A stretch of DNA of 64,000 nt, taken from positions 1,451-65,450 of the forward strand of contig DASZWM010000007.1 in assembly GCA_035546615.1 (NCBI GenBank). Reading direction: 5' to 3'. The notes under the pieces were generated by a model, which saw only the letters and a program-made list of their open reading frames with translations, was not told the DNA's origin and made no database searches. Of the stretch, positions 1 to 24,217 are shown piece after piece. The DNA is from Minisyncoccota bacterium. Lineage in GTDB: Bacteria; Patescibacteriota; Minisyncoccia; Phycocordibacterales; SBAW01. Both the position numbers and the translations under genes were made by a program. Within the stretch, counting starts at the first letter, position 1, and each line of letters begins with the position of its first letter.

Positions 1-3000
1 TCGAAGAGGCTAAGGAAGTAGGTAGCCGATGTGGTCGAGAACGCGTTGCCCTGGTTCTGGCTCAAGAAGTAGACGGCCGAGGTAGTACTGAAGCTGTTGG
101 CAAGATAGTACGAGCCTTCCTGTCCATCGAAGGTACCGGTCCAGTCGCCGGTGCGGTCCAAAGTGAGAACGCCACCAACGTTGGACAAGCCCGAGCCAGT
201 TAGGTCGGTAAAGGTCTCGTTGTTGATGCCGAAGGAAGTGGTGGTTGCGTTAGTGGAGAGCAGGTTCGGGAGGACGTTCTGTGCCGAGGTGGTGGCAATA
301 TAGTTTGCCGCAACTACCTGGCCGACTACCGAGAGCTTGCTGTACGGCGAGGTGGTGCCGATGCCGAAGTTGCCGGCAGGTGCGATGACGTTATTAGAAG
401 AGCCGACGGCGAGGTAGAGGTCATTAAGGCCGCCCGGGGTATAGATACCGGCATCGCTTGAACCGTCGACGTTGGTAGTGACGTGCGCGTCGCGGTTAAG
501 CGTGATGCCGGAGGTGAAGTAACCATATCCGCCGCTTACTTGCAGGGCGGCAAGCGGATTGCTGGTGCCGATGCCAACGTTGCCGCTAAAATATGCGCGG
601 CCAGTTGTGGTCGCCGGGCCGTTGACCGTAAGGCCGAGCGTGCCGTTGCCGATGGTCGAAGAAGCATTTACCTGGATGCCGAGAGTTGTTGTAGGCGTGA
701 GCGCGCCTGCAACTATCTTCCAGTCGCGGAACGTGTTGGCATAGTAGTTCTGTGAAGTAGTGCTGAACGCGTTGCCCTGGTTGACAGAGAGGAAGTATGC
801 GGCCGAAGTAGTAGAGAACGCCTGGCCCTGATTTTGCGCGAGGAAGTACAAAGCGCTGGTGGTCGAGAAGAAGTAGCCCTTGTCGAAGAGGCCGAGCGTC
901 GTGGTGGAGAGGCGCGAGTTGAACGAGTTCCAATCGCTTGATGAGAGGTAGCCGTCGGTAGAAGCGCCCGACTGGCTGATGGTAAACACGCCGGTCGACG
1001 GGTTGTACGAGAGCGGGCCGGTTGCCGAGAGCGAGGTCGAGGAGATCTTGTTGTTGAAGGTGGTCCAGTCAGTGCTTGAGAGATAGCCGTTCTGCGCGCC
1101 GTTGGCCTGCTGGATGGACAAGGTATTGCCGGAGAAGGAGAGCGGACTCGAGACCGTGGTCGAGATGACGGAACCGTTTGCATTTGTGGAGAGAAGAGTG
1201 TTCAGGAGGCTGGTGATGGCGAGATTGGTCGTTGTCGCCTGCTGGGTCGTAAAATTGCCGCTCGCGTCGATCCTGGTCAAGACCGTGCCGGCGTTATTGA
1301 GGAACTGCGCCAAGTCCGCGGTCTGGGCCGAAGCGCCCTGTACCGTAAAGACCTTCTTCGCGGCGCTTGAGTTAATGAGGCCGAAGAGCGATATAGGCAC
1401 CGTCGTATTGGTCCAATTGAGGTCGGTTATCTGGGTCGAAGACGCATTGAACTGCAGGCGGTTGAGCTGGGTGTCCGCGCCGTAGGTGCCGCCCATGAAG
1501 GTCGCGTTATTGTTGCTCGCGTTCGTTATCTGGAAGTACGTGGTCGAGGTCGCCGTGGCGCCGCCGCCCGTCCAGCCCCCGCTGTTATACACAACGCGCA
1601 GTTGGCCGCCGCCGCCCACGACATTGTCGCCCTTGAGGATGACGCCGTTGCCGGAGGTCTGGTTGTAGATGGTCGGGTTCGCGCCGACGGAGTTAAGCGT
1701 AAGCGTGTTGTTTGTAGAGTCGAATGCAAAGTCGGAATCATCGGTTATCTGGCTGCCTGCGCCGATAAAAGGCACGCGGCCGGCAGTGAGGCTCGTAACC
1801 CGCAGATTAGTGGTTGTCGCGGTGCCGTTTACCGTTAGGCCGCCGCCCGCCGCGCCGTTGCCAATCGTTGAGCTTCCGAAGACGCCGATGGATTGCACCG
1901 TCGAGCTTGGCGTGAGGAAGGCTGTAGCGCCGGAACCAACGATCTTCCAGTCACGGAACGCGTTGGCGTAGTAGTCCTGGGATGTGGTCGAGAATGCGCC
2001 GCCGGTCGAGGCCCAGTAATTTGCGGATGTGGTCGAGAAGAAGTAGCCCTTGTCGAAGAGAGCGAGCGTCGAAGTGGAGAGGCGCGAGTTGAAGGTGTTC
2101 CAGTCGGTCGACGAGAGATAGCCGTCGGTCGAGCCGCCGGACTGGCTGATAGAGAACACGCCGGTTGAGACATTGTACGAAAGCGGGCCGGTCGCGGAGA
2201 TAGAGGTGGAGCCGAGCAGGCCCAGCGTGTTGGTTGCAGTAAGGCTGTAGCCGCCGGTGCTGTTGCCTACCAGAATATTTCCGTACGAAGGAGCGGCCGA
2301 AAGTCCGGTGCCGCCGTACATGACGCCGAGCGATGAGGTTGCAACCACCGAGCCCTGCGCGTTGGTGGTAAGGAGCGCGGAGCGCACGCCGAGGATAGCC
2401 AGGCCGGTGGTCGTGGCGGTCGTCGTGGTGGAGTAGCGGCCGACGAAGTCGGTGAGCGTCGTGGTGCCCAAGACCGCGAGGCCGCCGCGGGAGAAGATGC
2501 CCGAGATGCCGACATTAATGCCCCCCTGCGCGTATATGTCGCCGCCGACATTGAGGTTGTCGGCAATGTTCGCAACGCCGACCTCAAGCGAGCCGATGTT
2601 GGCGGCCGGGAGCTTCGCGCCGTTTATATCGACCACCTTCACCGTACTGCTGTTGCTGGTGACGTAGGCGTATTTGCCCGAGAGGCTCAGGCCGCGCGGG
2701 TTGCCGCCGGTCGCGAACGTGCCGACCGAAGTGATGCTCGCGAGGTTGTGCACGTCGAGCACGACGAGGTTGCCGGACGTGTCGGTAACGTACGCGTAGT
2801 CGCCGGCCGCCTCAACCGTGTAGTAGCCGGTGCCGGTCTTGGAGCCCGCCAGGCTGATGGAGGCCGGGTTGCTTATGTCGAGCACGTAGAGGCCGCCGGA
2901 AGCGTCCGCAACATAGAGGTAGCGGCCGGACGCGTACAAGGTCGCCGGAACGCTCAGGCCGGTGTAGCTGTATACGGCCGTCGGGCTTGCCGGGTTGCTG

Positions 3001-6000
3001 ATGTCGACGGAAGTGACGGAGCCGTTGTAGATGGAGCCCACGTACAGGTACTTGCCCTGCACCGCGACCGAAGACCCCGAGCCGATAGGCGTGCCGGGGG
3101 ACGAGTACTGGCCCACGATAACGGGCGCCGCCGGGTTGGCGATGTCGACGATGTTGACCATGCCGGTGTCGAGGTTCGGCGCGTAGAGGTAGCGGCCGGA
3201 GAGCGCGAGCGAAATAGGATGGCCCGCGCCGGAGAGCGTGGAAACGAGGGTCGGTACCGCCGGGTTGGAGACGTCGATGATAACGAGACCCGCGGACGCG
3301 TCGCCGACGTACGCGTACTTGCCGGAGACTACGATGCTCTGCGCTTGGGTGGTGCCCGTGTAGGAGCCGACGAGCTTGGGGTTGCCCGGCTGGGTGATGT
3401 CGAGGATGCGCACGTTTCCGGCGGCAACGTAGGAGTAATGGCCGGAAGTGTTGATGCCGTATGAAGTCCCGCCGACTAAGGTCGAGGTCGCCAGGGTCGG
3501 CGTGCCGCTTGCCACCTGGAGTATATTGCCGCCCGCGACGGTGAGCTTCTGGGAAGGCGACGTGGTGCCGAAGCCGGCGAGACCGCCGAAGGACGCGATG
3601 CCCGAGTTGTAGAAGCCGGTCGTGGTGGCGTTGTCGATGGTCGCGCCTCCGACCACTTCGAGCTTGGAGAGCGTCGAGGTCGAGGTAAAGCCGATGAGCA
3701 CCTGGTCGGTCGCGGTCGTCAGGCGGATGCCCGAGCCGTTGAAGTGGGTCCAGTTGACGTCCGAGCCGGACGCGCCCGCGTCGGTGCCGCACTGGAATTG
3801 TCCGGTCGCGGAGTTCCATAGGAGCTTGTCGACCGAGCCGGAGCAGGAAGAGAGGTTGGCGCCGGTTATCCTGCCGTTTATGTACAGGTTCGTCGTGGTC
3901 GAAGTGCCGCTCGTAATGACATCGCCCGGGAAGGTATACACGCTCGAGGAATTGCCGCCGAAGGTTCCCGCCTGCGTGGTGATGACGCCGGTGGATGAGG
4001 TGTACGAGATGACCGACTGGCCCGAGAGGCTGGTCGAGGAGATCTTGTTGTTGAAGACGCTCCAGTCGGTATTTGTCAGGAAGCCCGGCTGGGAAGCGTT
4101 GGCCTTTTGAGCGCCGGCGTAGTCGATGGAGATAAGGCCGGCGCCGTTATCGTTGAAGTCGGACGAAGCGAAGGATGCGGCGCCCTTAGTGCTGCCGTCT
4201 GCCTTCGCGTCCTGAATGGAGAACGTGCCGGAGCTTGGGTTGTAGAACAGCGGCGCGGTGGCGTTGAGCGAGCCGGTCGTAACGAGGCCGAGGCTCGAGG
4301 TCGAGGTAAGCGTGTACGTACCATTGCTGTTGCCCACCAAAAGGTTTCCGTAGCTCGGAGGGGTCGAGAGTCCCGTGCCGCCGTAGATGACCGAGAGCGT
4401 CGACGTTGCCGACACGGCGCCGTTAATGGCCTGCAGGGGTCCGGTGATGTTGGAGATGGTTACGCCGCCGTTGAATGTGTTGCTGTTCGTAAACGTATTG
4501 CTGGAGTAGGTCTTCGGAATCGTGCTTGATGCGTCGACGAAATGGATAGCCGACGTGGTTGAGAAGAAATTGTTCTGCGTCTTCCAGTAGTCGGCCGAAC
4601 TGGTCGAGAAGCCGACGAGCGTCTGCTGGGAGAGGAAGTAAAGGGCTGATGTCGTGGAGAACGCCTGACCCTGATTGACAGAGAGGAAATATGAAGCAGA
4701 AGTCGTGGAGAAGAAATTATTCTGCGTCTTCCAGTAATCGGCCGAGGTGGTGGAGAACGAGTTCGCGAGGTAGTACGAGCCTTCCTGGCCGTCCAGCGTG
4801 CCCGTCCAGTCGCCCGCGCGGTCGAGCGTCAATGCGCCGCCGACATTCAGGAGGCCGGAGCCGGTGAGGTCGGTGAAGTACTCGGAGTTGAGACCCAGTA
4901 TCGCGGAGTACAGCGAGGTAGAGGTCGCGTTGGTGGTGGTGCCGAAGGTAACGGTGAGAGCGGAAATGGTCGACGACGAGTATGCGGTGAGGCCTGCGCC
5001 GAACTGCTGCAAGGCGGCCCAGGTATTCGAGTTCGAGAGGTTAAGGCCCCAATCGCTTATCCCCGCGCTGCCGTCATAGCTTGAGCCGGCGAGCGTCGCG
5101 TTGTGGGAAAGCGCGCTGAGGCTGGTGCCGAGCTGCTTGCCGCTGATGGTCGAGTTAGTAAGTCCCGCGTTATCGAGCGTGCCGGAAAGCGTAGGGGCGA
5201 ACGTGAATGCGCCGCCCGTGTTCGTTATCCTGATGCCGAGAGTCTGCCCGTTCTGCGTGAGCGTCGAGGTGGAAAGCGTAAGCGCGCCCGTCTGCGCCGT
5301 GCCGCCGCCGGTCTGCGAAAGCGACAGGACGCCGGTGTTTGAGATGACGCCCGTTGCGGGAACATAGCTGATGCCCGTACCCGCCGAGAGAGAAGTGGAG
5401 CCGAGCAGGCCCAGTGTGTTCGTGGCGGAGAGCGCGTAGCCGCCGGTGCCGTTCCCTACCAGAATGTTTCCGTACGACGGCGCTGCGGTCAGCCCCGTGC
5501 CTCCGTACAGGACGCCGACGGAAGAGGTTGCGGAAACTACGCCATTGATCGCCTGGAGCGGGCCGGTGAGGTTGGAGATAGTTACGCCGCCGTTGAAGGT
5601 ATTGGAATTCGTGAACGTGTTGGCGGTGTAGGTCTTCGGGATGGTCGTGGAAGACGTAACGAACCACATAGCGGAAGTGGTGGAGAAGAAGTTATTCTGC
5701 GTCTTCCAATAGTCTGCAGAGGTAGTCGAGAACGCAAGATTCTGGTTATTTGCTAGGAAGTAGAGGGCGGAGGTGGTGCTGAAGGCATTGCCCTGGTTCT
5801 GCGAGAGGAAGTATGCGGCGCTGGTGGTCGAGAAGAAATAGCCCTTGTCGAAGAGGCCGAGGGTGGAGGTGGAAAGGCGGCTGTTGAAGGAATTCCAGTC
5901 CGTGCTTGAGAGATAGCCGTCGGTCGAGCCGCCGGACTGGCTGATAGTGAAAATACCGGTCGAAGAGTTATAGGCGAGCGGCGCAAGTGCCGAGAGGCTG

Positions 6001-9000
6001 GCCGGGGTAAGGAAGCCGAGGCTGGATGTCGGCGCAAGGTCGTAGCCGCCTGCGCTGTTGCCCAGGAGCACCTGGCCGTAGGCCGGAGCGAGCGTGAGGC
6101 CGGTGCCGCCGTACACGACACCGATGCTCGTAGTTGCCGACACGAGGCCGTTAATAGCCTGCAGCGGCCCGGTGAGATTGGAAACGTACAGCGAGTCGAT
6201 GGTTGCGAGCGTTGTCGACGAAGTAAGGACGCGCGTGCTGGTGGCGAAGAAGCTGCTTGAGGTCGCGTTGGTAAACTTTGCCGTTGAGGGGGTCGTGGCG
6301 CCGATAGGCGTGCTGTTTATCGTGCCGTTCGAAATAGTGAGGTTGTCGGCTACGTACGCGTCGGCTACGATGCTGCCGTGCCAAACGCCGGTCGAGACGG
6401 TTCCGACGTTGGAGGAGCCGAGCACCGTCAGCGTGGTGAAGACCGCGCCCGGCGCGTTGAGCGTCGTGCCGTCGAAGGTGAAGGTATTGTCCCCGACGAC
6501 CGCGTCTTCCGCCTGGTTGGTGAAGAATATCTGTCCTGCAACGTACGTATCCGGCGCATCAGTGAGCCCGAGGAACGTGGTTGAGCCGCCTCCGCCGCCG
6601 GTGCCGCAGTCGCTGCCGGTGCCCGACACCACGCCCGCCGCGTTGACGCGCAAGCACTGCGTCGTACCGGTAATGGAGCCGAGCGTAAGTCCGCCCCCGA
6701 GCGTGAGCGCGCCGGTCGATGAGAACGTCGAGGTCGCCGTCGCGCCGAAGGAGGCCGACTGGTAGACCGAGAGCTTCGACGTGGAAGCCGCGTTGAACTG
6801 CTGGAGCTGGGACCAGGCGTTTGCGGTAGTGGTGCCGAAGGCGAGGCTGAACTGTCCGGTGGTCTGGTTGTACTGGACCGGGTACGAACCGGAGATGCTG
6901 GTGGTGCCGAGCTTGCCGTTGAAAAGGGTCCAATCGCTCGAGGAAAGATATCCGTTCGTTGAGCCGTTAGCCTGCGCGATGGAGAACACGCCGGTGTTCC
7001 CGTCGTACGAAAGCGGCGCGAGCGCGGAAAGCGACGATGTGGAGAGCAGGCCGTTGGCGGCGGCAAAGTAGCTTGCGGAAGTCGTGGAGAAGAAATTGCT
7101 GACCGACTTCCAGTACTCCGCGGAGGTGGTGCTGAAGGCATTGCCCTGGTTCTGCGAGAGGAAATACGCGGCCGAAGTTGTCGAGAACGCGTTGCCCTGG
7201 TTCTGGGCGAGGAAGTATGCGACGCTGGTGGTTGAGAAGAAATTATTCTGCGTCTTCCAGTAGTCAGTCGAGGTGGTCGAGAAGAAATTGCTGACAGACT
7301 TCCAGTACTCAGCGGATGTCGTGGAGAAGCCGGTCGAGGTGCCGCCGAACATGATGCCGAGGCTGGAGGTCGAGACGAGGTCGTAGCCGCCGGTTGCGTT
7401 TCCGACAAGCACCTGGCCGTAGGCCGGCGCGGTCGTCGTGCCGGTGCCGCCGTTTGCAACGCCGAGCGTGCCGCCGAGCACCAAAGTACCCGAGGACGTG
7501 ATGGGGCCGCCCGTGAAGGAGAGCCCGGTGGTGCCGCCGTTGGCTGCAACCGATGTTACCGAGCCGCCGCCCGAGCCGCCCAGGCCCAGAGTCGAGGTTG
7601 AGGTTACAGCCCACTTCACGCCGTCCCACACCAGCACGTCGCCGAACGCGCCGCCGCCGATGTGCGGCACCGTTGAGGAAGCGGAGATGTACGCGCCGAC
7701 AGCATAGTTGCTGGAAGTGGTGGAGAAGAAGTCGCGAGCCGTCTTCCAGTAGTCGGCGGAGGTGGTGGAAAATCCGCTAAGGCTCTGAAGCGAGAGGAAG
7801 TATGCCGCTGAGGTTGTAGAAAATGCCTGGCCCTGATTTTGGCTGAGGAAGTACGCGGCGGAGCTGGTCGAGAAGAAGTAGCCCTTGCCGATGGAGTCGA
7901 GATACGCCTGCGCGTTCTGCGGCGTGAAGTACAGGTTGGTGGCGCCTTCGTCGAGGCCGTCGGTCGTGGTCGCGTACCACGCGGAGAGCGACAGCTTCGA
8001 GTCAAGCGCGTTCTGGAGATCGGTTTGGTTGGAAAGCGTGCCGACGATATTGCCCCACGACGGATTGCCGCCCGCGGCGATGCCGAGCGTCGAGGTGGAA
8101 ACCAGGTCGTAGCCGCCCATGGAATTGCCGAGAAGGAGCTGGCCGTAGGTCGGGGCAGTGGAAGTGCCGGTGCCGCCGTTTATCGCATTGAGCACGCCGG
8201 AGAGCGTGAACGTGCCGGTCGACGTGATAGGCCCGCCGAGGAAGGAGAGGCCGGTCGTGCCGCCGCTTGCGTCAACCGACGTTACCGAGCCGTTCCCGCC
8301 GCCCGAATTGCCGCCGCCGTTGTGGCTGTGCGAAGGGTTCGGCGAAAGCGCCGCGGCCTCTATTTTCGGGAGAAGGAAATTCTGCAGCGCGAGCAGGCGG
8401 AGGTTGAGTATGTCTTCGGTGACGCCGGAACCCTGCACCAGACGCTCGGTAACCGGATAGGTGTTGTAGACCGGGTACGAGTTCTGGACGATCGTCGTGG
8501 TCGCGGTGCCTGCGGCGACCGGAGCAGACGGGCCGTACGCCGGCGAGGTCTGCGTGCCCGCCGCATACTGCGCGGGAACGCGCGGGCCGAAGAGGAACGA
8601 AAATACCTGCGAGAAGACATCGGACGCGACAGACGGCGATGACTTCGCCGGAAGGGAGAATCCGAACTGGAGCGGATGCGCCCCGAAGAACGGCGACTCC
8701 ACCTGCGCGAGCGACGCCGCAAGCGTGGTCTGGTTCTGCATCGCGACCTCGCGCTGGTGCATCGCGCCGGCGTACGCTACGGCGCCGAAGAGCAGCATGC
8801 CCCCCAGCGCCATCACCGCGTTGCGCGCCAGAAGCGAAGAGAAGCGCGAGGCGACGCCGTTCGCGGAAGGAACGGCGTCGGCCTCAACCGCCTTCTTCGC
8901 AGGCAGGCCGTTTGCCTTGCGGTACGTCTCGTTCTCAAGCTTGCGCTCCTTCGCTAACGCAGACGCGCGCTCAAGCTTTGCCTGAGCGCGCGCCGCCTCG

Positions 9001-9179
9001 AATTCTCCAAGGGACTTCTCCTCGACGAACCATGCGCCGTTTATCTGCGAGCCGCGCAGCTTGCCGTCGCGCAAAAGGCGGCCGACATAGTCCTGAGCGC
9101 AGTTCATCCGCTTGGCGGCAGAACGGGCCGAGAGCATCGGTTCGCCTGAATTTGAGATGATTTGTTTAGCGGGTGACAT
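1..9179 (-). CDS. Giant repetitive cell-surface protein, N-terminal 3,059 codons (gene continues past window position 1; no stop codon in window). Domains: cytoplasmic excisionase/HTH_17-like module, single TM helix, Ser/Thr/Gly-rich repeat modules, 7-repeat LVIVD beta-propeller
   Basis: Reverse-complement translation from ATG 9179-9177 (MSPAKQIISNSGEPMLSARSAAKRMNCAQDYVGRLLRDGKLRGSQINGAWFV...) stays open and protein-like down to position 3. There is an in-frame stop upstream at 9309-9311. No ORF-track entry between 1 and 9200 lies in this frame, since the track lists only ORFs closed inside the window. All listed ORFs there are R/P/A/S-rich off-frame artefacts. Recurring motifs: VSATSSxGVxYGGTGLxxAPSYGNxLVGNxTGGYxL, tandem FSTTSAxYFLSQNQGNA units, and GKYAYVxDxSGxLVVLDVxNPAxP. 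Confidence 0.85.
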   Translation of the reverse strand, partial: MSPAKQIISNSGEPMLSARSAAKRMNCAQDYVGRLLRDGKLRGSQINGAWFVEEKSLGEFEAARAQAKLERASALAKERKLENETYRKANGLPAKKAVEADAVPSANGVASRFSSLLARNAVMALGGMLLFGAVAYAGAMHQREVAMQNQTTLAASLAQVESPFFGAHPLQFGFSLPAKSSPSVASDVFSQVFSFLFGPRVPAQYAAGTQTSPAYGPSAPVAAGTATTTIVQNSYPVYNTYPVTERLVQGSGVTEDILNLRLLALQNFLLPKIEAAALSPNPSHSHNGGGNSGGGNGSVTSVDASGGTTGLSFLGGPITSTGTFTLSGVLNAINGGTGTSTAPTYGQLLLGNSMGGYDLVSTSTLGIAAGGNPSWGNIVGTLSNQTDLQNALDSKLSLSAWYATTTDGLDEGATNLYFTPQNAQAYLDSIGKGYFFSTSSAAYFLSQNQGQAFSTTSAAYFLSLQSLSGFSTTSADYWKTARDFFSTTSSNYAVGAYISASSTVPHIGGGAFGDVLVWDGVKWAVTSTSTLGLGGSGGGSVTSVAANGGTTGLSFTGGPITSSGTLVLGGTLGVANGGTGTTTAPAYGQVLVGNATGGYDLVSTSSLGIMFGGTSTGFSTTSAEYWKSVSNFFSTTSTDYWKTQNNFFSTTSVAYFLAQNQGNAFSTTSAAYFLSQNQGNAFSTTSAEYWKSVSNFFSTTSASYFAAANGLLSTSSLSALAPLSYDGNTGVFSIAQANGSTNGYLSSSDWTLFNGKLGTTSISGSYPVQYNQTTGQFSLAFGTTTANAWSQLQQFNAASTSKLSVYQSASFGATATSTFSSTGALTLGGGLTLGSITGTTQCLRVNAAGVVSGTGSDCGTGGGGGSTTFLGLTDAPDTYVAGQIFFTNQAEDAVVGDNTFTFDGTTLNAPGAVFTTLTVLGSSNVGTVSTGVWHGSIVADAYVADNLTISNGTINSTPIGATTPSTAKFTNATSSSFFATSTRVLTSSTTLATIDSLYVSNLTGPLQAINGLVSATTSIGVVYGGTGLTLAPAYGQVLLGNSAGGYDLAPTSSLGFLTPASLSALAPLAYNSSTGIFTISQSGGSTDGYLSSTDWNSFNSRLSTSTLGLFDKGYFFSTTSAAYFLSQNQGNAFSTTSALYFLANNQNLAFSTTSADYWKTQNNFFSTTSAMWFVTSSTTIPKTYTANTFTNSNTFNGGVTISNLTGPLQAINGVVSATSSVGVLYGGTGLTAAPSYGNILVGNGTGGYALSATNTLGLLGSTSLSAGTGISYVPATGVISNTGVLSLSQTGGGTAQTGALTLSTSTLTQNGQTLGIRITNTGGAFTFAPTLSGTLDNAGLTNSTISGKQLGTSLSALSHNATLAGSSYDGSAGISDWGLNLSNSNTWAALQQFGAGLTAYSSSTISALTVTFGTTTNATSTSLYSAILGLNSEYFTDLTGSGLLNVGGALTLDRAGDWTGTLDGQEGSYYLANSFSTTSADYWKTQNNFFSTTSASYFLSVNQGQAFSTTSALYFLSQQTLVGFSTSSADYWKTQNNFFSTTSAIHFVDASSTIPKTYSSNTFTNSNTFNGGVTISNITGPLQAINGAVSATSTLSVIYGGTGLSTPPSYGNLLVGNSNGTYTLTSTSSLGLVTTGSLNATAPLFYNPSSGTFSIQDAKADGSTKGAASFASSDFNDNGAGLISIDYAGAQKANASQPGFLTNTDWSVFNNKISSTSLSGQSVISYTSSTGVITTQAGTFGGNSSSVYTFPGDVITSGTSTTTNLYINGRITGANLSSCSGSVDKLLWNSATGQFQCGTDAGASGSDVNWTHFNGSGIRLTTATDQVLIGFTSTSTLSKLEVVGGATIDNATTTGFYNSGIASFGGLAGFGTTSPSQKLTVAGGNILQVASGTPTLATSTLVGGTSYGINTSGHYSYVAAGNVRILDITQPGNPKLVGSYTGTTQAQSIVVSGKYAYVGDASAGLVIIDVSNPAVPTLVSTLSGAGHPISLALSGRYLYAPNLDTGMVNIVDIANPAAPVIVGQYSSPGTPIGSGSSVAVQGKYLYVGSIYNGSVTSVDISNPASPTAVYSYTGLSVPATLYASGRYLYVADASGGLYVLDISNPASISLAGSKTGTGYYTVEAAGDYAYVTDTSGNLVVLDVHNLASITSVGTFATGGNPRGLSLSGKYAYVTSNSSTVKVVDINGAKLPAANIGSLEVGVANIADNLNVGGDIYAQGGINVGISGIFSRGGLAVLGTTTLTDFVGRYSTTTTATTTGLAILGVRSALLTTNAQGSVVATSSLGVMYGGTGLSAAPSYGNILVGNSTGGYSLTATNTLGLLGSTSISATGPLSYNVSTGVFSISQSGGSTDGYLSSTDWNTFNSRLSTSTLALFDKGYFFSTTSANYWASTGGAFSTTSQDYYANAFRDWKIVGSGATAFLTPSSTVQSIGVFGSSTIGNGAAGGGLTVNGTATTTNLRVTSLTAGRVPFIGAGSQITDDSDFAFDSTNNTLTLNSVGANPTIYNQTSGNGVILKGDNVVGGGGQLRVVYNSGGWTGGGATATSTTYFQITNASNNNATFMGGTYGADTQLNRLQFNASSTQITDLNWTNTTVPISLFGLINSSAAKKVFTVQGASAQTADLAQFLNNAGTVLTRIDASGNFTTQQATTTNLAITSLLNTLLSTNANGSVISTTVSSPLSFSGNTLSIQQANGAQNGYLSSTDWTTFNNKISSTSLSATGPLSYNPSTGVFTISQSGASTDGYLSSSDWNSFNSRLSTTTLGLFDKGYFFSTTSALYFLAQNQGQAFSTTSAAYFLSVNQGNAFSTTSQNYYANTFRDWKIVAGALTPTTTLGIQVNASSTIGNGTLGLTVNGPATTTGRAYFSGNVGIGTSNPLAALQVSGGYGYFTSGITLNRDAHVTTNVDGSSDAGIYTPGGLNDLYLAVGSSNNVIAPAGNFGIGTTSPYSKLSVVGQVVAANYIATTSAQNVLPNLLSTNATTTSFGINNETFTDLTGSGLSNVGGVLTLDRTGDWTGTFDGQEGSYYLANSFSTTSAVYFLSQNQGNAFSTTSATYFLSLF
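2620..3480 (-). repeat. Seven tandem LVIVD repeats (beta-propeller) inside the giant gene
   Basis: Translated units read HYSYVAAGNVRILDITQPGNP / GKYAYVGDASAGLVIIDVSNPAVP / GRYLYAPNLDTGMVNIVDIANPAAP / GKYLYVGSIYNGSVTSVDISNPASP / GRYLYVADASGGLYVLDISNPASI / GDYAYVTDTSGNLVVLDVHNLASI / GKYAYVTSNSSTVKVVDINGAKL. Confidence 0.75.
8999..9134 (-). other. Excisionase/HTH_17-like helix-turn-helix module at the N-terminus of the giant protein (aa ~15-60), followed by a predicted TM helix at ~8762-8843
   Basis: LSARSAAKRMNCAQDYVGRLLRDGKLRGSQINGAWFVEEKSLGEF aligns with the excisionase-family HTH consensus (..AAelLgvsrstvyrlikeGklpaikiGgrWrirredLeaf). A hydrophobic stretch LLARNAVMALGGMLLFGAVAYAGAM follows about 50 aa later. 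Confidence 0.55.
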
Positions 9180-9485
9180 GTTGCCGAAAAAACTTTTGTT
9201 TGTGCGGAGAGTTCGGGTATTTCGTGTTTCAACAGAAGAGGTAGCGACCCGCCGATGTGCCGCTACCCTGTTACTAATTATTTTACGCGAGTGTCGCGCT
9301 TTTTCCGTCTATAATATGCGAAGAAAAATGTGGATATCTTATTGCACTGCAACGGAATTTTGAAAATTTATTTTCAAAAAATAATCAGCTTAAAATGAGT
9401 TTGCTGTTTAAAATTCCATGAAAAAATATTCGGCTTACATACCCTTTTCTCGTCTTAAAAATTGTATAGGAGAGATATGTTGTAA

Positions 9486-9554
9486 TCAAAAGCTACATCG
9501 GCTCTCCCATACGATATCTCGGATAACTTCTCGGCTAATCTCGGATAGCTTCAT
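9486..9554 (-). CDS. Possible 22-aa small ORF (MKLSEISREVIRDIVWESRCSF) preceded by a perfect AGGAGGT, in the AT-rich region upstream of the giant gene
   Basis: ATG at 9554-9552, TGA at 9488-9486. AGGAGGT sits at 9572-9566 with an 11-12 nt spacer, which is long. Too short for the ORF track. Confidence 0.15.
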   Translation of the reverse strand: MKLSEISREVIRDIVWESRCSF

Positions 9555-9600
9555 AATGCTATTTTACCTCCTAAGTATGCCGGAGGGGCAAAAAACCAAG

Positions 9601-9649
9601 TTCTAGTATTAAAAACGGCGTCTTTTGACAAGTTGTCAAACTGACGCCG
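9601..9649 (-). terminator. Rho-independent terminator downstream of the 279-aa HTH/TM protein gene
   Basis: Long hairpin cggcgtc-ttttgacaa-g-ttgtcaaa-ct-gacgccg (9616-9649), followed on the minus strand by UUUUUAAUACU. The loop region itself is a TTGACAAgTTGTCAA palindrome. Confidence 0.6.
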
Positions 9650-9688
9650 AATACTAAATAAAATATGAATTCGAAAATCTGACGCGAT

Positions 9689-10528
9689 CTAATGCAAAGA
9701 GTAGCCGACGCTTGCGGTCTTCCCCGCTTCTATGACCGTCGTTGAATTGACGAGCAGTGAGCTCAGCGCGACGACCGCGAACACGACGGCGCCGAGCGTC
9801 ATGATGCTGAATGCCGGCATGAGCATGCCGACGGAATATTTTTTTGACGGCGCGTATTCCGTTATTGTCACTTCCTCGTCCGCGTCCTCTTCTGCCGCTT
9901 TCGGCATGACCGACGCTTTCGCTTTTTTGCTTGCGGGCTTCTGTATTTCCGGCAGCGAAGGCGCCGCGTCTTCTATATAGCGCAGGCCCGTCTTTTTCTT
10001 TGTCTCCGCAAGGCGTATCGGGATATGTATAGATTCGCGCGCCGCTTCGGGCTCTATCTCCACAAAAACTTTTTCTTCCGCCTCTTCAACTTTTATTTCT
10101 TCAGGCGCGAAGTCTGCTATCAGCTCTTCCACTTGGATCGGGCGGCGGAAACTTTGTATCGGTTCCGGAATGACGGGAGCAGTCGCCTCAGCTTCGGTCT
10201 CCTCTTCTTCAGCTGTCTCTTCTTCTTTTTCCGCAGCCGGCTCCGGCTTCTCTTCCTCGGTCTCAGCGGGTTCCGGAACTTCTTCAGCCGCTTCGGCACG
10301 CACGACGGGCGCTACCGAAAGTATCTTCTTCGGCTCCTCCGCCGGCTTCGGGTTCTTGAGGTAGTCAGCCAGAAACTCGGCATCCACATACCAGGAGCGG
10401 CCCACTTTCTGGCCCACTATCTTTTTGGCGCGTATGAGCTGGCCGATATAGTCGGCATGGTATTTATACTGCTTTGCGGCAAGCCGAGTCGAGATATACC
10501 GCTTGCCCGAGATTTCCAGTTCGTCCAT
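9689..10528 (-). CDS. Tail-anchored membrane protein with N-terminal excisionase/HTH_17-like module, long acidic E/P/A-rich linker and C-terminal TM helix. Paralogous at the N-terminus to the giant protein
   Basis: ISGKRYISTRLAAKQYKYHADYIGQLIRAKKIVGQKVGRSWYVDAEFLADYL matches the same HTH-like motif as the giant protein. A low-complexity EEPKK/AEEE linker follows. C-terminal hydrophobic segment is MLMPAFSIMTLGAVVFAVVALSSLLV. Confidence 0.7.
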   Translation of the reverse strand: MDELEISGKRYISTRLAAKQYKYHADYIGQLIRAKKIVGQKVGRSWYVDAEFLADYLKNPKPAEEPKKILSVAPVVRAEAAEEVPEPAETEEEKPEPAAEKEEETAEEEETEAEATAPVIPEPIQSFRRPIQVEELIADFAPEEIKVEEAEEKVFVEIEPEAARESIHIPIRLAETKKKTGLRYIEDAAPSLPEIQKPASKKAKASVMPKAAEEDADEEVTITEYAPSKKYSVGMLMPAFSIMTLGAVVFAVVALSSLLVNSTTVIEAGKTASVGYSLH

Positions 10529-10582: not shown

Positions 10583-11992
10583 CTAGCCGAGAATCTTTAT
10601 GAAAACCTCGCGAAGGACGCCGGGATTGCCTGCGCCCTTTGTTTCCTTCATTCCCTGCCCTATCAGGAATTGGAGCGATGCGGTCTTCCCCGCTTTGTAG
10701 TCGGCCGCAACCTGTGGATAAGCGTCGATGATCTTCTGAGCGACGGCCTCAAGCGCGCCGGCATCAGACTGCTGAATATATTTCTTTGAAACCTCCGCAA
10801 GATCGCCGCCGTTCGCGAACACGTCCGCAATAGCGTCTTTGGCGCCGCGCGAAGATATGTCATTTTTTGAAAGCATGGCCATGAGCGCGCTCAGGCCTTC
10901 CGGCGTTATGTGCGCGAGCCCTGCCTCCCCCGCTTTCGCCGCGAGCCCGACAATGTCGGAGCCGATATAATTCGCCAGCAGTTTTTTAGCTTCCGGCGCA
11001 AGCGCGGACGCTTTTTCAAAAAGGTTTCCCAGCCGCTCGTCGGCGACGAACATTTCCGCATATTCCGGATTGATGCCTTCAGCAACGTACCTTTCACGCT
11101 TGGCCCACGGCAGCTCCGGCAGCTCTCTTTTCAGCGTCTCAAGCGAGTATTCGGGGAGTTCCGAGAGCTTGAGCTTCGGCAGGTCCGGGTCCGGGAAGTA
11201 ACGGTAGTCGTGGGAGGACTCCTTCTTGCGCTGGGAAAATGTTTCCTGCTTCGCCTCGTCCCAGCCGCGGGTTTCCTGCACCACCTTCTCTCCCCTTTCG
11301 AGGAGCTGGGCTTGGCGCTTGGCCTCAAAAGCGATGGCTCGCTCGACCGAGCGGAACGAGTTGAGGTTCTTTACCTCTACCTTCGTGCCGAGATTCTCGT
11401 CAGAACTTATGGAAATGTTGGCTTCAACACGCATCTCCCCCTTCTCCATATTCGCCTCCCCTGCCCCGAGCGTGCGAAGAAGGAGCTGCAATTCCCGGGC
11501 AAAGCGGCCGGCCGTCTCGGCATCATGGATGACCGGCTCGGTAACGAGCTCCATAAGGGGCACCCCGGCGCGGTTATAGTCCACTAGGCTTTTCTCGCCT
11601 TCGTGCTGGGAGCGGGCGGTGTCTTCCTCAAGGTGTATGCGGGTAAGCTCCACCCCGGCGAGATTCCCCCCCGAGACGAGCGGATACTGGTATTGGCTTA
11701 TCTGGTAGCCCTTGGGAATGTCGGGGTAGAAGTAATTCTTGCGGTCGAACTCGGTAAAGTCGGCGAGATTGCCGCCAACAGCGGTGCCCATAAGCAGTAC
11801 CTTATGCACGGCGTCCTTGTTTATGACCGGCAAAGTTCCCGGATGCGCCATGCACACCGGGCAGATATTGAGGTTGGGCGTCTTCTCGTCAGGATCGTTG
11901 AGGCACGCGCAGAACATCTTGGTCTGGGTCTTGAGCTCTGCGTGCACCTCGAGCCCTACGGTCAGTCGATACTCGGCCATATATAGAGGCAA
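10583..11992 (-). CDS. gatB: Asp-tRNA(Asn)/Glu-tRNA(Gln) amidotransferase subunit B
   Basis: 469 aa. MAEYRLTVGLEVHAELKTQTKMFCAC..NICPVCMAHPGTLP..YFYPDIPKGYQISQ. C-terminal GatB/YqeY-type domain. Confidence 0.95.
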   Translation of the reverse strand: MPLYMAEYRLTVGLEVHAELKTQTKMFCACLNDPDEKTPNLNICPVCMAHPGTLPVINKDAVHKVLLMGTAVGGNLADFTEFDRKNYFYPDIPKGYQISQYQYPLVSGGNLAGVELTRIHLEEDTARSQHEGEKSLVDYNRAGVPLMELVTEPVIHDAETAGRFARELQLLLRTLGAGEANMEKGEMRVEANISISSDENLGTKVEVKNLNSFRSVERAIAFEAKRQAQLLERGEKVVQETRGWDEAKQETFSQRKKESSHDYRYFPDPDLPKLKLSELPEYSLETLKRELPELPWAKRERYVAEGINPEYAEMFVADERLGNLFEKASALAPEAKKLLANYIGSDIVGLAAKAGEAGLAHITPEGLSALMAMLSKNDISSRGAKDAIADVFANGGDLAEVSKKYIQQSDAGALEAVAQKIIDAYPQVAADYKAGKTASLQFLIGQGMKETKGAGNPGVLREVFIKILG

Positions 11993-12051: not shown

Positions 12052-14151
12052 TTACTGCCCCAGCAGATAGAGCTGCCTGACCTCCGCAGCCGGGAGCGCG
12101 CGGTTGTAGACGCGCACATCGTCGAGCTTGCCGTTGAAGGTATACATAGCCCCGCTTCCGTTTCCCATGCTGCCGATATATGTATTAAAAGAAGCGGGCG
12201 TACCGGGATCGGTGGTCTGCGCGGAGGAAGCATCGAGGGAGCCGTTGATGTATATTTTCTTTGTCGCCCCGTCGTAGGTAAAGACGACATGCGTCCATGT
12301 AGAAGTCGCTATCGTAGCGGCGGATACGATCTGGCTCAGCGAACTGTTCCAAATGCCTCCCGAGACCTTTCCTGCTTGTATGTACATATCTATGCCTTTG
12401 TACGTGCCGCAGCAGTCCCGGGCGTTGCTGTACACGTAGTTGTATAGATAGGTCTGAGGAGTATTGTCGTATATCCATGCGGAAATAGTAAATCGGCTCG
12501 GGGTCAGCGAATTGCTGCTGCCCACATTTATTCCGCCGGTATTCATCCCGCTAAAACTGAACCCCTGTCCCATCCTGCCTATCGTCTTGCGGCTCGAAGT
12601 GGCGTTGTTGGTACCGACTAAGTATCCATTAAAACCACTCCCCGAACGGTCGTACACCTTGTCGGTTACGTCCGGCCCGTCGAAGGTCCAGAGGCCGACC
12701 AGCCCGCTTGAGAGGCTGCTGTCGGAAGACAAGTCGGGTGAAGGCGTATTTATCTGTGCGGTACCCTGCCTATATAAGGCCGCTATTTCCGCCGCCGAGA
12801 GCGCGCGGTCGTAGATGCGCACATCGTCCATGAGGCCGCCGAAGAACGAGGCGGAAGGATTGATATTGGCGTCCTTGCCGATAAAGAGGACGCTCGGTGC
12901 TGTGAGCGACTGGGTCCCCCCGGTACCCGTGTTGTCAAGAACCCCGTTCACGTACACTGTCATGGCGCCGGTCGATTTGACGCGGGTCGCGGTTACGAGC
13001 ACCCAATTGCCTGTGTTAACATCGGCATTCGAGAATACGGTCGTATCAGAGTTACCGACGCCGAAAGCAAGTTTGCCGTTATAAACCGTCATGCCGAAGT
13101 CGTTCGTTACGCCCCCGACTTCGCCGTCTACTATCCCCTGCCCGCAGTACCATTGCCCTGCGCAGCCCGCGGTATTCTGCGTCGTCTTTATCCATGCGGA
13201 GAGCGTGAAGTCGTCCGATACGGTGCGATTGACGGGTATATAGCTGGTGCTCCCGTCGAACAAGAGCGCCTTGCCGTGCTTTCCGCTTGCCCAGGCCGGA
13301 AGCGTCGAGCCGGAGAGCGTCCCGTCGTTGCTATTGCCGCTTGAGTCCCCCGCAATAGTACCCGTACCCTCGTTGAAGTCCCACGAGCCGACGAGGCCGA
13401 CGTTGTTAGGCGCGCGCACCTGCGCCGCCCCGCCCCTGTACAGAGCGACGATTTCCGCATCCGACAACGCGCGATTGTAGAAACGGAAATCATCAATCGT
13501 CCCGACGGTAGGCTCGCCGCCCGAATACTTTCCCAATATCCAGGAAGACTTCGCAATGCTGGTGGTGTCTGTCTGGGCGCTTCCCAGTGACGCGCCATTC
13601 ACAAAAACGGACACATTCGAGCCGCTTCTCTTTGCAACAATGTTGTACCAAACGCCTGCCGCGGGGGTAAACGGCCAGCTGAGCGTATGAGGCCCGGAAG
13701 GCGTTCCCCGTATGTATAGCATCACCACATGCGCCGTATTATCGAACTCGATCAATACTCCGGCGGTTCCCGCATATCCGCCGTCAAATGTCGTCTGGTA
13801 GCGCGCGGGGAAGCCGTCGAACCTGATCCAATGAGAAATAGTAAAATCTCCCGTTCCTATCTGGAATGCGTCGCTGACCGGGATGCTTACGTAATTGTCG
13901 CTGTTCGTGAATGAAAGGCCCTTGCTGAACCTGCCCGTAACCCATGTTGGCAGCGTGGTGCCCGAGAGCGTGCCTATGTGGCCGTTCCCGCTCAAATCGC
14001 CCAGCTTAGTTCCCGAGGCGTCGTTGAAGCTCCAGTACGCTATGAGCCCTAAATTATTCGCGGGTTTGGCAAGCGCGGCGGCCTGCGCGGCGGCGGGCAG
14101 AAAAAATGCCGCGAATATGAAACATATCGCGATGCCGGGAAATACCCTCAT
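12052..14151 (-). CDS. Secreted protein with four tandem concanavalin-A-like lectin/glucanase (LamG-like, Laminin_G_3-type) domains
   Basis: Signal peptide MRVFPGIAICFIFAAFFLPAAAQA. Four ~170-aa repeats each contain WxFNExSGTxxxDxSGNxNxGTLSG ... DDxRxYNRALSxAEIxxLY. Confidence 0.8.
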   Translation of the reverse strand: MRVFPGIAICFIFAAFFLPAAAQAAALAKPANNLGLIAYWSFNDASGTKLGDLSGNGHIGTLSGTTLPTWVTGRFSKGLSFTNSDNYVSIPVSDAFQIGTGDFTISHWIRFDGFPARYQTTFDGGYAGTAGVLIEFDNTAHVVMLYIRGTPSGPHTLSWPFTPAAGVWYNIVAKRSGSNVSVFVNGASLGSAQTDTTSIAKSSWILGKYSGGEPTVGTIDDFRFYNRALSDAEIVALYRGGAAQVRAPNNVGLVGSWDFNEGTGTIAGDSSGNSNDGTLSGSTLPAWASGKHGKALLFDGSTSYIPVNRTVSDDFTLSAWIKTTQNTAGCAGQWYCGQGIVDGEVGGVTNDFGMTVYNGKLAFGVGNSDTTVFSNADVNTGNWVLVTATRVKSTGAMTVYVNGVLDNTGTGGTQSLTAPSVLFIGKDANINPSASFFGGLMDDVRIYDRALSAAEIAALYRQGTAQINTPSPDLSSDSSLSSGLVGLWTFDGPDVTDKVYDRSGSGFNGYLVGTNNATSSRKTIGRMGQGFSFSGMNTGGINVGSSNSLTPSRFTISAWIYDNTPQTYLYNYVYSNARDCCGTYKGIDMYIQAGKVSGGIWNSSLSQIVSAATIATSTWTHVVFTYDGATKKIYINGSLDASSAQTTDPGTPASFNTYIGSMGNGSGAMYTFNGKLDDVRVYNRALPAAEVRQLYLLGQ

Positions 14152-15487: not shown

Positions 15488-16213
15488 TTACAGGTGCTCA
15501 AGCAATCGCCCGTAGCCGAGGCCTCCGAAGAGGCCGTAGCCCCATTGTATGAGAAGCCCCATGTCGCCGAGCAGCATCAGGACCCCGATCGCTATGAGAA
15601 TCGCGCCGCCTATCTTTGAAAGAACGCTCACGAACCCGCTCCAGTGCCCGAATGTCTCATGGAGCTTCTCAAGAAATATCGCCGTCAGCAGGAACGGGAT
15701 GCCGAGCCCCAGCGAAAAGGCCGCGAGCAGAAGTGCTCCCACCGCCGCGGTCGAAGAGGTCGAGGCGATGAGCAGGACAGTGCCGAGAATAGGCCCGATG
15801 CACGGGCTCCAGCCCAGCGCGAACAGGGCGCCTATCAAAAACGAGCTTTGCGGATGCCCGACCGCAAGGAATTTCGGCAGTCGTATATGGTGCTCGCCGC
15901 CGAGCCCCGGTACGCGAAGAAGCCCTAGCATCGTGAGGCCGAACAATATGATAACTGCGCCGGCGAGCCTGCCCAGAAGATCTTTCCAGGGAGCGAGAAA
16001 CTCGCCGAAGAATCCGGCGAACGTGCCGAGCAGGATGAAAACGACGGAAAAGCCCAGCACGAACGCGATAGCGTTGCGCACCACGCGCCCGCGGCCTCCG
16101 GCGATGAACGCTAAATACCCGGGCACTATGGGAAGCGTGCAGGGCGCCAGGAACATCAGAACGCCCGCCAGAAATGCTGCAGGCAGGAGCACAAGCGGGT
16201 CAAGCGGCGTCAT
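15488..16213 (-). CDS. ccdA: Cytochrome c-type biogenesis / thiol-disulfide electron transporter CcdA (DsbD family)
   Basis: Polytopic membrane protein with Cys in TM1 (LAPCTLP) and Cys in TM4 (GWSPCIGPILG). Confidence 0.8.
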   Translation of the reverse strand: MTPLDPLVLLPAAFLAGVLMFLAPCTLPIVPGYLAFIAGGRGRVVRNAIAFVLGFSVVFILLGTFAGFFGEFLAPWKDLLGRLAGAVIILFGLTMLGLLRVPGLGGEHHIRLPKFLAVGHPQSSFLIGALFALGWSPCIGPILGTVLLIASTSSTAAVGALLLAAFSLGLGIPFLLTAIFLEKLHETFGHWSGFVSVLSKIGGAILIAIGVLMLLGDMGLLIQWGYGLFGGLGYGRLLEHL

Positions 16214-16237
16214 TTCGCTATTGTAGCGTATCTAAGC

Positions 16238-16723
16238 CTAATGCCTTCCCCACTCCGTCTTTATTCCCTTCCTCTGGTTGTCGGCCATGACAAGCTCGTC
16301 GTAGATGCCGTCGATAAGCTGGTAGTTCTTCGCTTCCTCCAGGCTCACCCACGCGAATTCGTCGCACTCTTCCTTCTGGAGCGTTACCTCGCCGCTCTTG
16401 TAATCTGCCAGGCAGGAGATGACGAGCGACGGGTCCTTGCCTTCGTGCACGGCGGCCAGGCTTGTGACGTATGCGATGTTCTCTATCTCAAGCCCCACTT
16501 CTTCCCGTACTTCGCGGCGGAGCACTTTCTCAAGCACGTTGTACCAGTAATCGGTCGTGTCTTTCGGCAGGCTTATATAGTCGTCGGTCTCGAGCTTGCC
16601 GCCCGGCACCGTCCACATGTTGGGAAAGCGCTTCTTCTGGGCCGAGCGCTTCGTTATCAAATACTTCCCGTCCCTGATGATAATGGCGGTGATGGCGACC
16701 TCATGGAGATACTTGTTTTCCAT
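16238..16723 (-). CDS. NUDIX hydrolase (161 aa, starting MENKYLHEV; the upstream part of the 300-aa track ORF is junk)
   Basis: Nudix box GGKLETDDYISLPKDTTDYWYNVLEKVLRREVREEVGLEI. ATG at 16723-16721. Confidence 0.8.
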   Translation of the reverse strand: MENKYLHEVAITAIIIRDGKYLITKRSAQKKRFPNMWTVPGGKLETDDYISLPKDTTDYWYNVLEKVLRREVREEVGLEIENIAYVTSLAAVHEGKDPSLVISCLADYKSGEVTLQKEECDEFAWVSLEEAKNYQLIDGIYDELVMADNQRKGIKTEWGRH

Positions 16724-23869: not shown

Positions 23870-23873
23870 GGCG

Positions 23874-24197: not shown

Positions 24198-24217
24198 ATG
24201 AAAAATATACTACGGCT

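Follow-up and report, generated by a model that had tools for sequence, protein, structure and literature searches.

The 64,000-nt stretch of contig DASZWM010000007.1 analysed here (hereafter the window) carries at its left edge the first 3,059 codons of a giant open reading frame (ORF), which is a genuine chromosomal gene of a Paceibacterota bacterium, which belongs to the candidate phyla radiation (CPR), also called Patescibacteria. We consider it probable that its product is a giant attachment fibre, exported through Sec and anchored in the membrane at its N terminus, with a cytoplasmic base of DNA-binding type that it shares with a small partner protein. The gene lies as follows.

3..9179, minus strand: giant ORF, the first 3,059 of the gene's 3,543 or more codons; 5′ end at 9179, 3′ end beyond both the window and the contig

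A truncated giant gene at the edge of the window

The minus-strand frame running from 9179 to 3 starts, according to its translation, with an ATG at 9179-9177 and continues for 3,059 codons without a stop; none of the 44 open codons 5′ of this ATG is ATG, GTG or TTG. A frame of this length lies far outside what chance produces: when the same 9,177 nt were shuffled 200 times, the longest open frame had a mean of 191 codons and a maximum of 386. The GC content at codon positions 1, 2 and 3 is 0.49, 0.55 and 0.82 (0.818 for the third position, GC3), and the GC3 of the housekeeping genes secA (0.845) and obg (0.809) in the same window is alike. This codon signature is uniform along the length of the ORF. 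The three plus-strand frames across the same region contain 37, 78 and 179 stops; together with the wrong codon-position GC, these rule out the plus-strand ORFs as real products, the alternative that an earlier note on this DNA had set against its own claim of a giant gene. The gene is missing from the ORF list solely because that list drops frames that run off the window edge.

A homologue search covering 5.8 billion proteins matched the window product, with 100% identity over the whole query, to residues 1-3,059 of a 3,543-aa database protein (P0001), which NCBI names 'MAG TPA: hypothetical protein VHD55_03845, partial [Candidatus Paceibacterota bacterium]'. The stop-free codons, the GC3, the shuffles and this match thus confirm the earlier note in its claim of a real, truncated giant gene absent from the ORF track. 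At E ≤ 1e-5 the search also retrieved 108 giant relatives, most of which carry the name Paceibacterota or Parcubacteria; these and the NCBI name agree with the CPR-like organism that had been supposed. The source contig is 65,450 nt long, and the window is this contig minus 1,450 nt. Extending the sequence leftward along the contig, as had been suggested, did yield 484 further residues, made of the same module types, but the end of the gene was not reached, as the contig itself ends within it. An exact look-up of P0001 found no other contig, and a database search with its last 266 residues found no 100%-identical continuing fragment.

A winged helix-turn-helix base and a single membrane helix

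The giant protein is laid out as about 110 predicted cytoplasmic residues with a winged helix-turn-helix (wHTH) domain, one signal-anchor helix and more than 3,400 predicted extracellular residues. Its N-terminal features are the following.

8994..9155, minus strand: predicted cytoplasmic wHTH of the MerR/excisionase type, residues 9-62 (from HTH_17 matches of homologues, AlphaFold2 (AF2) and Foldseek)
8757..8843, minus strand: single predicted transmembrane (signal-anchor) helix, residues ~113-141 (from the hydropathy maximum and charge asymmetry)

Over residues ~113-141 the 19-residue Kyte-Doolittle mean reaches 1.81, the next best segments being strands of the propeller described below, at 1.36 or less. 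Lysine and arginine together make up 17.9% of residues 1-112 versus 2.4-3.8% C-terminal of the helix. This single strongly hydrophobic segment and its positive-inside charge bear out the one membrane helix that had been noticed before, and the topology predicted from hydropathy and charge is consistent with a type-II membrane protein, N-in/C-out. Serine and threonine each account for 13.8% of the giant (27.6% together) and glycine for 12.6%, with very few charged residues in the ectodomain. Four of the five cysteines form two close pairs, both in the ectodomain (842/858 and 1779/1797), in keeping with the predicted N-in/C-out topology.

About half of the 108 giant relatives begin with an alignable HTH segment (alignment A1, consensus …DYxxRLCRxGK…GxxWxV), and HTH_17 is matched in 31 of 37 homologous N-termini at E ≤ 0.01 (best E 1.8e-10). 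A profile of the relatives' N-termini matches the DNA-binding protein TraN/AM32 in the PDB. The AF2 model of the wHTH, computed on the homologue alignment, has a predicted local distance difference test score (pLDDT) of 93.2 and a predicted template-modelling score (pTM) of 0.74; its β-α-α-β-β elements followed by a long helix (E-H-H-E-E-H) correspond to the winged-helix fold of the Xis/MerR N-domain. The best Foldseek neighbour of this model is BldC, with a template-modelling score of 0.78-0.84 (normalised to target length) and a root-mean-square deviation (rmsd) of 1.4-1.6 Å, and further neighbours are the Xis of mycobacteriophage Pukovnik, TraN, the RdfS excisionase and RacA. The Foldseek probability to BldC, Xis, TraN and RdfS is 1.00, at rmsd values of 1.4-3 Å and, for this 67-aa domain, E values of only ~0.01-0.05. 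BldC, Xis, TraN, RdfS and RacA are all DNA binders of the MerR/excisionase type. No Pfam match to Trans_reg_C, the OmpR-type wHTH, was obtained at the giant N terminus; the domain is of the MerR/Xis type. Since the giant's own HTH_17 score lies below the curated cut-off, the assignment is made from the HTH_17 matches of the relatives and from the predicted fold, and on these grounds the excisionase/HTH_17-like module read earlier from the sequence stands. Basic residues are conserved in the second helix and the wing (A1). With less confidence, these residues and the fold suggest that the wHTH of both the giant and the small partner may bind DNA.

Searched with a profile of the N-terminal region, 1.84 billion representative proteins yielded 15,276 hits at E ≤ 1e-3, of which 5,917 reach E ≤ 1e-10; the hits include P0109-P0256. 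Most of the top 150 are 300-400 aa long and match in two stretches, and they are accompanied by a few giants of up to 7,214 aa. All six hits that were read have a tandem HTH-HTH arrangement, and five of the six add a long linker and a C-terminal transmembrane helix, with almost no ectodomain. No curated model covers the members of this short family. Conversely, roughly one in two giant relatives has an ordinary signal peptide at its start in place of the HTH-transmembrane unit, so the fibre and the HTH anchor are separable modules. The HTH-transmembrane module, which comprises ~15,000 sequence clusters, makes up a large and uncharacterised family by itself.

A mosaic ectodomain interrupted by a propeller

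Comparison of the ectodomain with itself, stretch by stretch, revealed a mosaic of short recurring modules in shuffled order, interrupted by an LVIVD propeller. The modules located in the window are listed here, all on the minus strand.

8064..8282, minus strand: GGTG module 1 (…NGGTGxxxAPxYGQxLxGNxxGGYxL…), residues ~300-372
7344-7562, minus strand: GGTG module copy, residues ~540-612
6024-6197, minus strand: GGTG module copy, residues 995-1052
5424-5594, minus strand: GGTG module copy, residues 1196-1252
4302-4472, minus strand: GGTG module copy, residues 1570-1626
2232-2402, minus strand: GGTG module copy, residues 2260-2316
7677..7874, minus strand: FSTTS cluster 1, four units of 15/17 aa, residues 436-501
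7041..7328, minus strand: FSTTS cluster 2, six units, residues 618-713
5637..5834, minus strand: FSTTS cluster 3, four units, residues 1116-1181
4515..4757, minus strand: FSTTS cluster 4, five units, residues 1475-1555
1944..2039, minus strand: FSTTS cluster 5, two units, residues 2381-2412
717..869, minus strand: FSTTS cluster 6, three units, residues 2771-2821
3..92, minus strand: FSTTS cluster 7, first two of five units, running past the window edge, residues 3030-3059
6197..6902, minus strand: non-repeated segment with the cysteine pair 842/858, residues ~760-995
2586..3452, minus strand: seven LVIVD repeats, a predicted seven-bladed β-propeller, residues 1910-2198 (Pfam and motif)

For the six GGTG…YGQxLxGN…GGY modules of the giant, 83 relatives together have 211 counterparts that each span 70% or more of the module. 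The ectodomain also contains several 'PLxYxxxTGxFSI…GYLSSxDWxxFN' modules, three 'TDLTGSG…LTLDRxGDWTGTxDGQEGSYYL' modules and, counted in the 3,543-aa protein, four 'YYANAFRDWKIV…GNVGIGT' modules. The FST[TS]S units number 26 in seven clusters within the window and 32 in eight clusters in the 3,543-aa protein. The GGTG, FSTTS and LVIVD arrays that had been described are thus real, but the FSTTS period is 15 or 17 aa (once 18) and not 16-18. The segment at residues ~760-995 has no paralogue within the giant and no relative among the 108 homologues.

We assigned LVIVD membership by a whole-protein score above the Pfam gathering cut-off combined with tandem repeats of ~42 aa, and the giant has both. 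LVIVD (PF08309) scores 165.9 bits against a cut-off of 20.2 (E 1.1e-49), with six stretches recognized by the hidden Markov model and a seventh by the motif; a seven-repeat propeller, proposed earlier, is therefore retained.

Copies of the repeats share 76-77% amino-acid identity versus 67-72% nucleotide identity, and 41-58% of the residues identical between copies are encoded by different codons, which argues for selection at the protein level. Judged by these comparisons, the repeats are old and under protein-level constraint. Across repeat copies, DNA identity is only 60-82% and no long near-identical copies occur, so a collapse of repeats during assembly is unlikely.

A gatB-linked cassette conserved among Paceibacteria

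Directly upstream of the giant gene lie two further genes.

9689..10528, minus strand: partner gene, directly 5′ of the giant, encoding 279 residues with a wHTH, an acidic linker, a C-terminal predicted transmembrane helix and a 19-residue tail
10583..11992, minus strand: gatB (Pfam), the conserved upstream anchor of the cassette

The wHTH of the partner is 34% identical to the giant HTH (E 4e-12) and is followed by the acidic linker of ~170 aa; the 279-aa protein matched no Pfam or NCBIfam family. In four further loci (L001-L004) the gene order is …secA/dsbD-obg-gatB-small (211-310 aa, no Pfam match)-giant (3,382-5,279 aa). All four small proteins have the HTH-linker-transmembrane design and align with the 279-aa protein of the window. 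An alignment of the small proteins was then scanned against one genome per GTDB species and found 252 relatives, the best 80 of which gave loci L005-L084; these best 80 all come from Patescibacteria metagenome-assembled genomes (MAGs), among them Paceibacterota, Adlerbacteria, Nomurabacteria, Minisyncoccia and others. Among the 84 loci, gatB is found just upstream in 81, and a second ORF with an HTH-motif start follows the small gene by a few hundred nt in 65. Among the complete second ORFs, 14 measure 1,688-5,255 aa; 26 more second ORFs are already longer than 1,000 aa at the point where the contig or the fetched DNA ends, and six are short (255-765 aa). Complete giant orthologues are therefore present at the same position in other assemblies, some of them on contigs of 200-550 kb.

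The gatB-linked HTH-transmembrane cassette is defined in the present analysis as gatB, a small wHTH-linker-transmembrane gene and a second wHTH-transmembrane gene, all three of which are present in the window. The giant gene is the local version of this conserved cassette and not an orphan. Both the paralogous small gene and the conserved synteny had escaped the earlier note, whose giant gene they extend to a two-gene unit.

To follow divergence within the cassette, the window proteins were compared with those of 11 loci. Identity along the full length is 52-85% for GatB and Obg. The small protein is 32-48% identical where it aligns over its whole length, and in three loci it aligns over the HTH only (~20% of the length, 54-68% identity). 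The N-terminal 145 residues of the giant are 27-56% identical, whereas the ectodomain aligns just in pieces, with 5-63% of a segment covered. The LVIVD propeller was found in seven of the 11 loci and not found in four. On this comparison, the giant ectodomain diverges far faster than the neighbouring genes do.

Two irregularities were seen among the giant ORFs of other loci. On the 547-kb Joint Genome Institute (JGI) contig of L001, a second giant ORF of more than 4,021 aa (20158-30149) begins 9 nt past the stop codon of P0002, the syntenic giant, and has no HTH, transmembrane helix or signal peptide; it could result from a split gene or from read-through, or be a partner that is secreted. In L018 (~18600-18878) and L022 (~16000-16258), giant ORFs that appear complete end in Arg/His/Cys-rich stretches that look out of frame, which suggests frameshifts in the repeats, caused by assembly error or perhaps by real phase variation.

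A 33-nt leader at the start of the giant gene

The interval between the small and the giant gene contains the following elements.

9180..9688, minus strand: spacer between the small and giant genes, 509 nt, AT-rich (37.7% GC)
9489-9461, minus strand: promoter-like site in the spacer
9240-9267, minus strand: hairpin GGTAGCG…CGCTACC, upstream of the leader
9184..9216, minus strand: conserved 33-nt leader CCGAACTCTCCGCACAAACAAAAGTTTTTTCGG, ending 4 nt before the giant ATG (alignments A4 and A6, model R1)

The 33-nt leader is nearly invariant in distant loci, while its flanks are not conserved. It recurs in L001 (9961-9994), L002 (5962-5998), L003 (6037-6072) and 46 more loci, and across loci the element (CCGAACTnTCnGnnnAAACAAAAGnnTTTTCGG) ends 2-4 nt before the giant ATG. 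In 50 of 85 sources, a sequence-only model built from 22 copies (R1) places a single leader per locus, on the gene strand and adjoining the start of the giant ORF, with one marginal off-target match. In the alignment, many loci have a TAnAAT-like box 20-25 nt upstream of the leader, so the leader may make up most of a short 5′ untranslated region (UTR). RNAalifold on the 22 leaders gave no pairs and no consensus structure, and nothing was found in Rfam at the leader. A hairpin is therefore less likely than a site bound by a protein or by the ribosome, and the leader may be an operator or a translation signal. A hairpin formed by the CCGAA/TTCGG inverted repeat within the leader was considered and rejected; the repeat is not kept where the outer positions vary (A6).

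The hairpin upstream of the leader is replaced by a longer stem, GGTAGCAATTCC…GGAATTGCTACC, in L005 (~11075-11105) and L007 (~11322-11350), and may be a structured 5′-UTR element limited to the closest relatives. In L003 (6001-6075), the annotated start of the giant P0004 (MKKKFLVQ…) lies upstream of the leader motif, and the true start is probably the ATG just after it (MASTKK…); some giant N-termini in the databases are thus over-extended.

The glycan locus and other features of the window

A large glycan-biosynthesis locus lies in the same window, together with RNA genes at its right end.

21590-48759: glycan-biosynthesis locus, ~27 kb (Pfam and others)
21590-23869: Wzy_C+TPR protein
61007-61093, minus strand: tRNA-Leu(CAG)
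62926-62999, minus strand: tRNA-Ile(GAT)
63616-64000, minus strand: 3′ end of the 16S rRNA gene, cut by the window edge

Besides the O-antigen-ligase-like Wzy_C+TPR protein, the glycan locus encodes a UDP-glucose dehydrogenase, two epimerases, a Wzm/Wzt ATP-binding cassette exporter, GT2 and GT4 glycosyltransferases, three GT11 fucosyltransferase-like proteins, a GT15-like mannosyltransferase and several methyltransferases, and is unusually rich for a reduced genome. It starts 12 kb from the giant gene, behind gatB, a gene for a LamG protein, obg, dsbD, NUDIX, secA and murB. No glycosyltransferase, Wzy_C or Wzm/Wzt gene was called in the 6-10 kb flanks of the giant in L001-L004; downstream of the giant, L003 and L004 have glycolysis and pentose-phosphate genes, L001 has the second giant gene, and L002 has genes that are unannotated or Gly_rich_2. 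The suggestion that the giant is a natural O-glycosylation substrate of this neighbouring locus gains no support here, as the two are separated by 12 kb and seven genes and are not syntenic in L001-L004. Ser/Thr richness alone is no evidence of glycosylation, and the glycan link is unsupported.

Between gatB and obg, the window encodes a 699-aa protein with three Laminin_G_3 (concanavalin-like lectin) domains (12052-14151, minus strand). In L001-L004, obg is followed directly by gatB without an inserted Laminin_G_3 gene, and the 699-aa protein is probably a second, genome-specific surface or lectin protein. The rRNA and tRNA genes and the neighbouring housekeeping genes identify the window as CPR chromosomal DNA, and the 16S rRNA end and the tRNAs are useful for the taxonomic placement of the organism.

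Proposed role and alternative explanations

In the reading that we favour, the signal anchor would thread the giant chain out through Sec; the presence of an N-terminal signal anchor points to Sec rather than to a type I secretion system (T1SS). The chain would form a long stalk that keeps the propeller and further binding modules at a distance from the cell, and the modules so presented could attach to a surface or to another cell, whether host or partner. The wHTH domains of both proteins could act on the control region of the cassette or tether the base of the fibre to the nucleoid. An attachment or host-interaction role of the giant is plausible, and a fixed position combined with a shuffled, divergent exterior would be expected of a protein that recognises hosts or ligands.

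In many relatives the stalk probably trimerises in the manner of a phage tail fibre. By our count from the table of relatives, Peptidase_S74 (PF13884) is present in 28 of 108 and Peptidase_G2 (PF11962) in 7 of 108; in P0074, for example, Peptidase_S74 occupies residues 4128-4177 of 4,644. Several relatives are named 'tail fiber domain-containing protein' by NCBI. Peptidase_S74 is the intramolecular chaperone of endosialidases and tail fibres, and S74/G2 domains drive the folding of trimeric fibres. By analogy with these relatives, a trimeric stalk is a reasonable expectation for the giant family.

Several points weigh against an attachment fibre with a DNA-binding base. The surface location, oligomeric state and binding of the giant protein are all inferred, and the available sequence lacks its C terminus, as the gene leaves the contig. 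The giant's own scores are below the cut-offs for both HTH_17 (PF12728; 17.7-20.7 bits versus 27) and TIGR01764 (the NCBIfam model 'excise'; 17.8 versus 28.8), and its wHTH could instead be a protein-interaction or retention module. An AF2 monomer of residues 965-1185, computed with 27 paralogous or homologous copies, was weak (pLDDT 63, pTM 0.29), and a Foldseek search of the PDB with this weak model returned nothing below E 0.35; the trimeric fibres among its noise-level matches are given no weight. Structure prediction on separate parts, as had been advised, was hence informative for the wHTH and not for the repeat block. Neither phmmer of the whole giant against PDB sequences nor tblastn, run with two repeat segments over 50,697 phage genomes, gave a match, and no tail-fibre chaperone domain was detected in residues 1-3,543, the C terminus lying beyond the contig. 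Since neither a phage match nor a tail-fibre domain is found in the available residues, the tail-fibre-like part of the reading rests on the relatives.

A different function of the same architecture is conceivable, though we think it unlikely: the giant may be a membrane-tethered one-component regulator or contact sensor whose ectodomain registers contact, tension or cleavage and whose wHTH, in place or after proteolytic release, controls transcription, as in regulators of the ToxR/CadC type or RIP-released factors, with the small protein as co-regulator. The predicted topology (HTH inside, one transmembrane helix, sensor outside) is identical to that of ToxR and CadC, the wHTH fold matches proven DNA binders, and a paralogous small HTH-transmembrane gene is always adjacent. 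The nearly invariant 33-nt element at the giant start could serve as operator, and the thousands of short HTH-HTH-transmembrane proteins almost without ectodomain indicate that the HTH-transmembrane unit has a function of its own. However, a fibre-like, shuffled ectodomain of more than 3,400 aa is far larger than any sensor domain known and, in its evolution, resembles a binding surface, and the ectodomain evidently works without the HTH-transmembrane unit, given that about half of the giant relatives carry a signal peptide in its place. The 33-nt element, moreover, occurs once per locus, and no regulon is evident. Regulation is compatible with adhesion and does not exclude it.

We give a similarly low probability to the view that the giant is a structural envelope or coat protein, such as a surface-layer (S-layer)-like protein or glycocalyx scaffold covering the cell. 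A membrane-anchored, very large, Ser/Thr-rich and charge-poor protein would suit such a role, as would the glycan locus in the same window and a conserved core-genome position beside housekeeping genes, which is that of a constitutive envelope component. Yet neither SLH nor any other S-layer domain was found in the giant with Pfam and NCBIfam. A lattice protein must also keep its self-contacts, whereas size and modules differ between close relatives and the propeller is present or absent; a single copy that exceeds 3,500 aa and carries a mid-chain propeller is better suited to a stalk than to a two-dimensional array.

More speculative, and in our view rather improbable, is that the wHTH-transmembrane unit is a CPR-specific transmembrane coupler which links a contact fibre to DNA, either to the 33-nt element or to the nucleoid, and makes the giant a 'mechanosensory adhesin'. 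If so, gene expression or chromosome organisation would change directly when the fibre engages a host cell, comes under tension or is cleaved there, and the short HTH-HTH-transmembrane proteins would be stripped-down relatives of a one-component mechanosensory adhesin.

Neither of the two remaining explanations fits the conserved chromosomal synteny, and we regard each as very improbable. A phage-derived tail fibre or prophage remnant, called to mind by the 'tail fiber domain-containing' relatives with Peptidase_S74 or G2 and by marginal PHROG matches (phrog_27815, E 6.8e-5), is largely refuted by the N-terminal HTH and membrane anchor, by neighbours that are gatB, obg and secA with no phage genes, by a chromosomal position kept in dozens of species and by the tblastn result above; a chimeric or repeat-collapsed ORF, which might be feared for a repetitive protein whose gene breaks at the end of a contig in a short-read MAG, is contradicted by the divergence of the repeat copies, the uniform codon signature and the complete orthologues of 1,688-5,255 aa at the same position in other assemblies.

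Relation to known systems

The attachment fibre proposed here shares features with several known systems. Like phage tail fibres and tailspikes, the giant family has a low-charge, Ser/Thr/Gly-rich composition and, in about one-third of the relatives, S74/G2 domains; unlike them, the giant has a membrane anchor, is encoded by a cellular chromosome and is 3-10 times as long as typical fibres, with no chaperone domain in the 3,543 available residues. It resembles the RTX adhesins (LapA/MpIBP/SiiE), Ebh and Giant1-5 of Apilactobacillus (PMC12863079) in size, repeats, surface exposure, fast modular evolution and presumed adhesion. Those proteins, however, use a T1SS retention module, LPXTG or a C-terminal transmembrane anchor and carry Ig-like repeats, whereas the giant has an N-terminal wHTH with a signal anchor and unrelated short modules; Pfam detected neither RTX nor Ig repeats in its 3,543 available residues. 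The regulators ToxR, CadC and TcpP likewise combine a cytoplasmic N-terminal DNA-binding domain, a single transmembrane helix and an extracytoplasmic C-terminal domain, but theirs are an OmpR-type wHTH and a small periplasmic sensor, in place of the MerR/excisionase-type HTH and the ectodomain of more than 3,400 aa. BldC, Pukovnik Xis, RdfS, TraN (pIP501) and RacA have the same predicted β-α-α-β-β fold as the giant wHTH; proteins of the BldC/Xis type are soluble and architectural or regulatory, while in the giant a linker joins the domain to a membrane helix. With LVIVD-repeat surface proteins (PF08309) the giant shares the seven canonical repeats, its propeller being ~9% of the chain and placed mid-fibre. 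The Pam pilus (PamA/B), a recently described CPR filament, is a different system.

Large repeat proteins (>1,500 aa) of Parcubacteria/OD1 have been proposed as adhesins in one sentence of an earlier study (Nelson & Stegen 2015, PMC4508563). They come from the same lineage and are unique, large and β-rich, with internal repeats and a presumed role in attachment; that paper describes no HTH-transmembrane anchor, paired small gene, gatB-linked position, leader element or module anatomy. CPR proteins are not covered by the 'Giant genes' preprint. NCBI already labels some relatives 'helix-turn-helix domain-containing', and in the literature we found no description of the wHTH-transmembrane anchor, the paired small gene, the gatB-linked position or the leader element.

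Taken as a whole, an anonymous 'hypothetical protein, partial' becomes part of a two-gene cassette that keeps one place in the chromosome throughout the lineage. The Paceibacteria rank with the most abundant of CPR bacteria and with the least understood, and almost none have been cultured; to our knowledge, their mode of host attachment is not known. The combination of gatB and the leader motif provides a simple locus finder with which host-interaction genes could be tracked across metagenomes. A hypervariable giant ectodomain is the signature expected of a host-range determinant, and the giant is a good candidate for the structure by which these bacteria contact their hosts.

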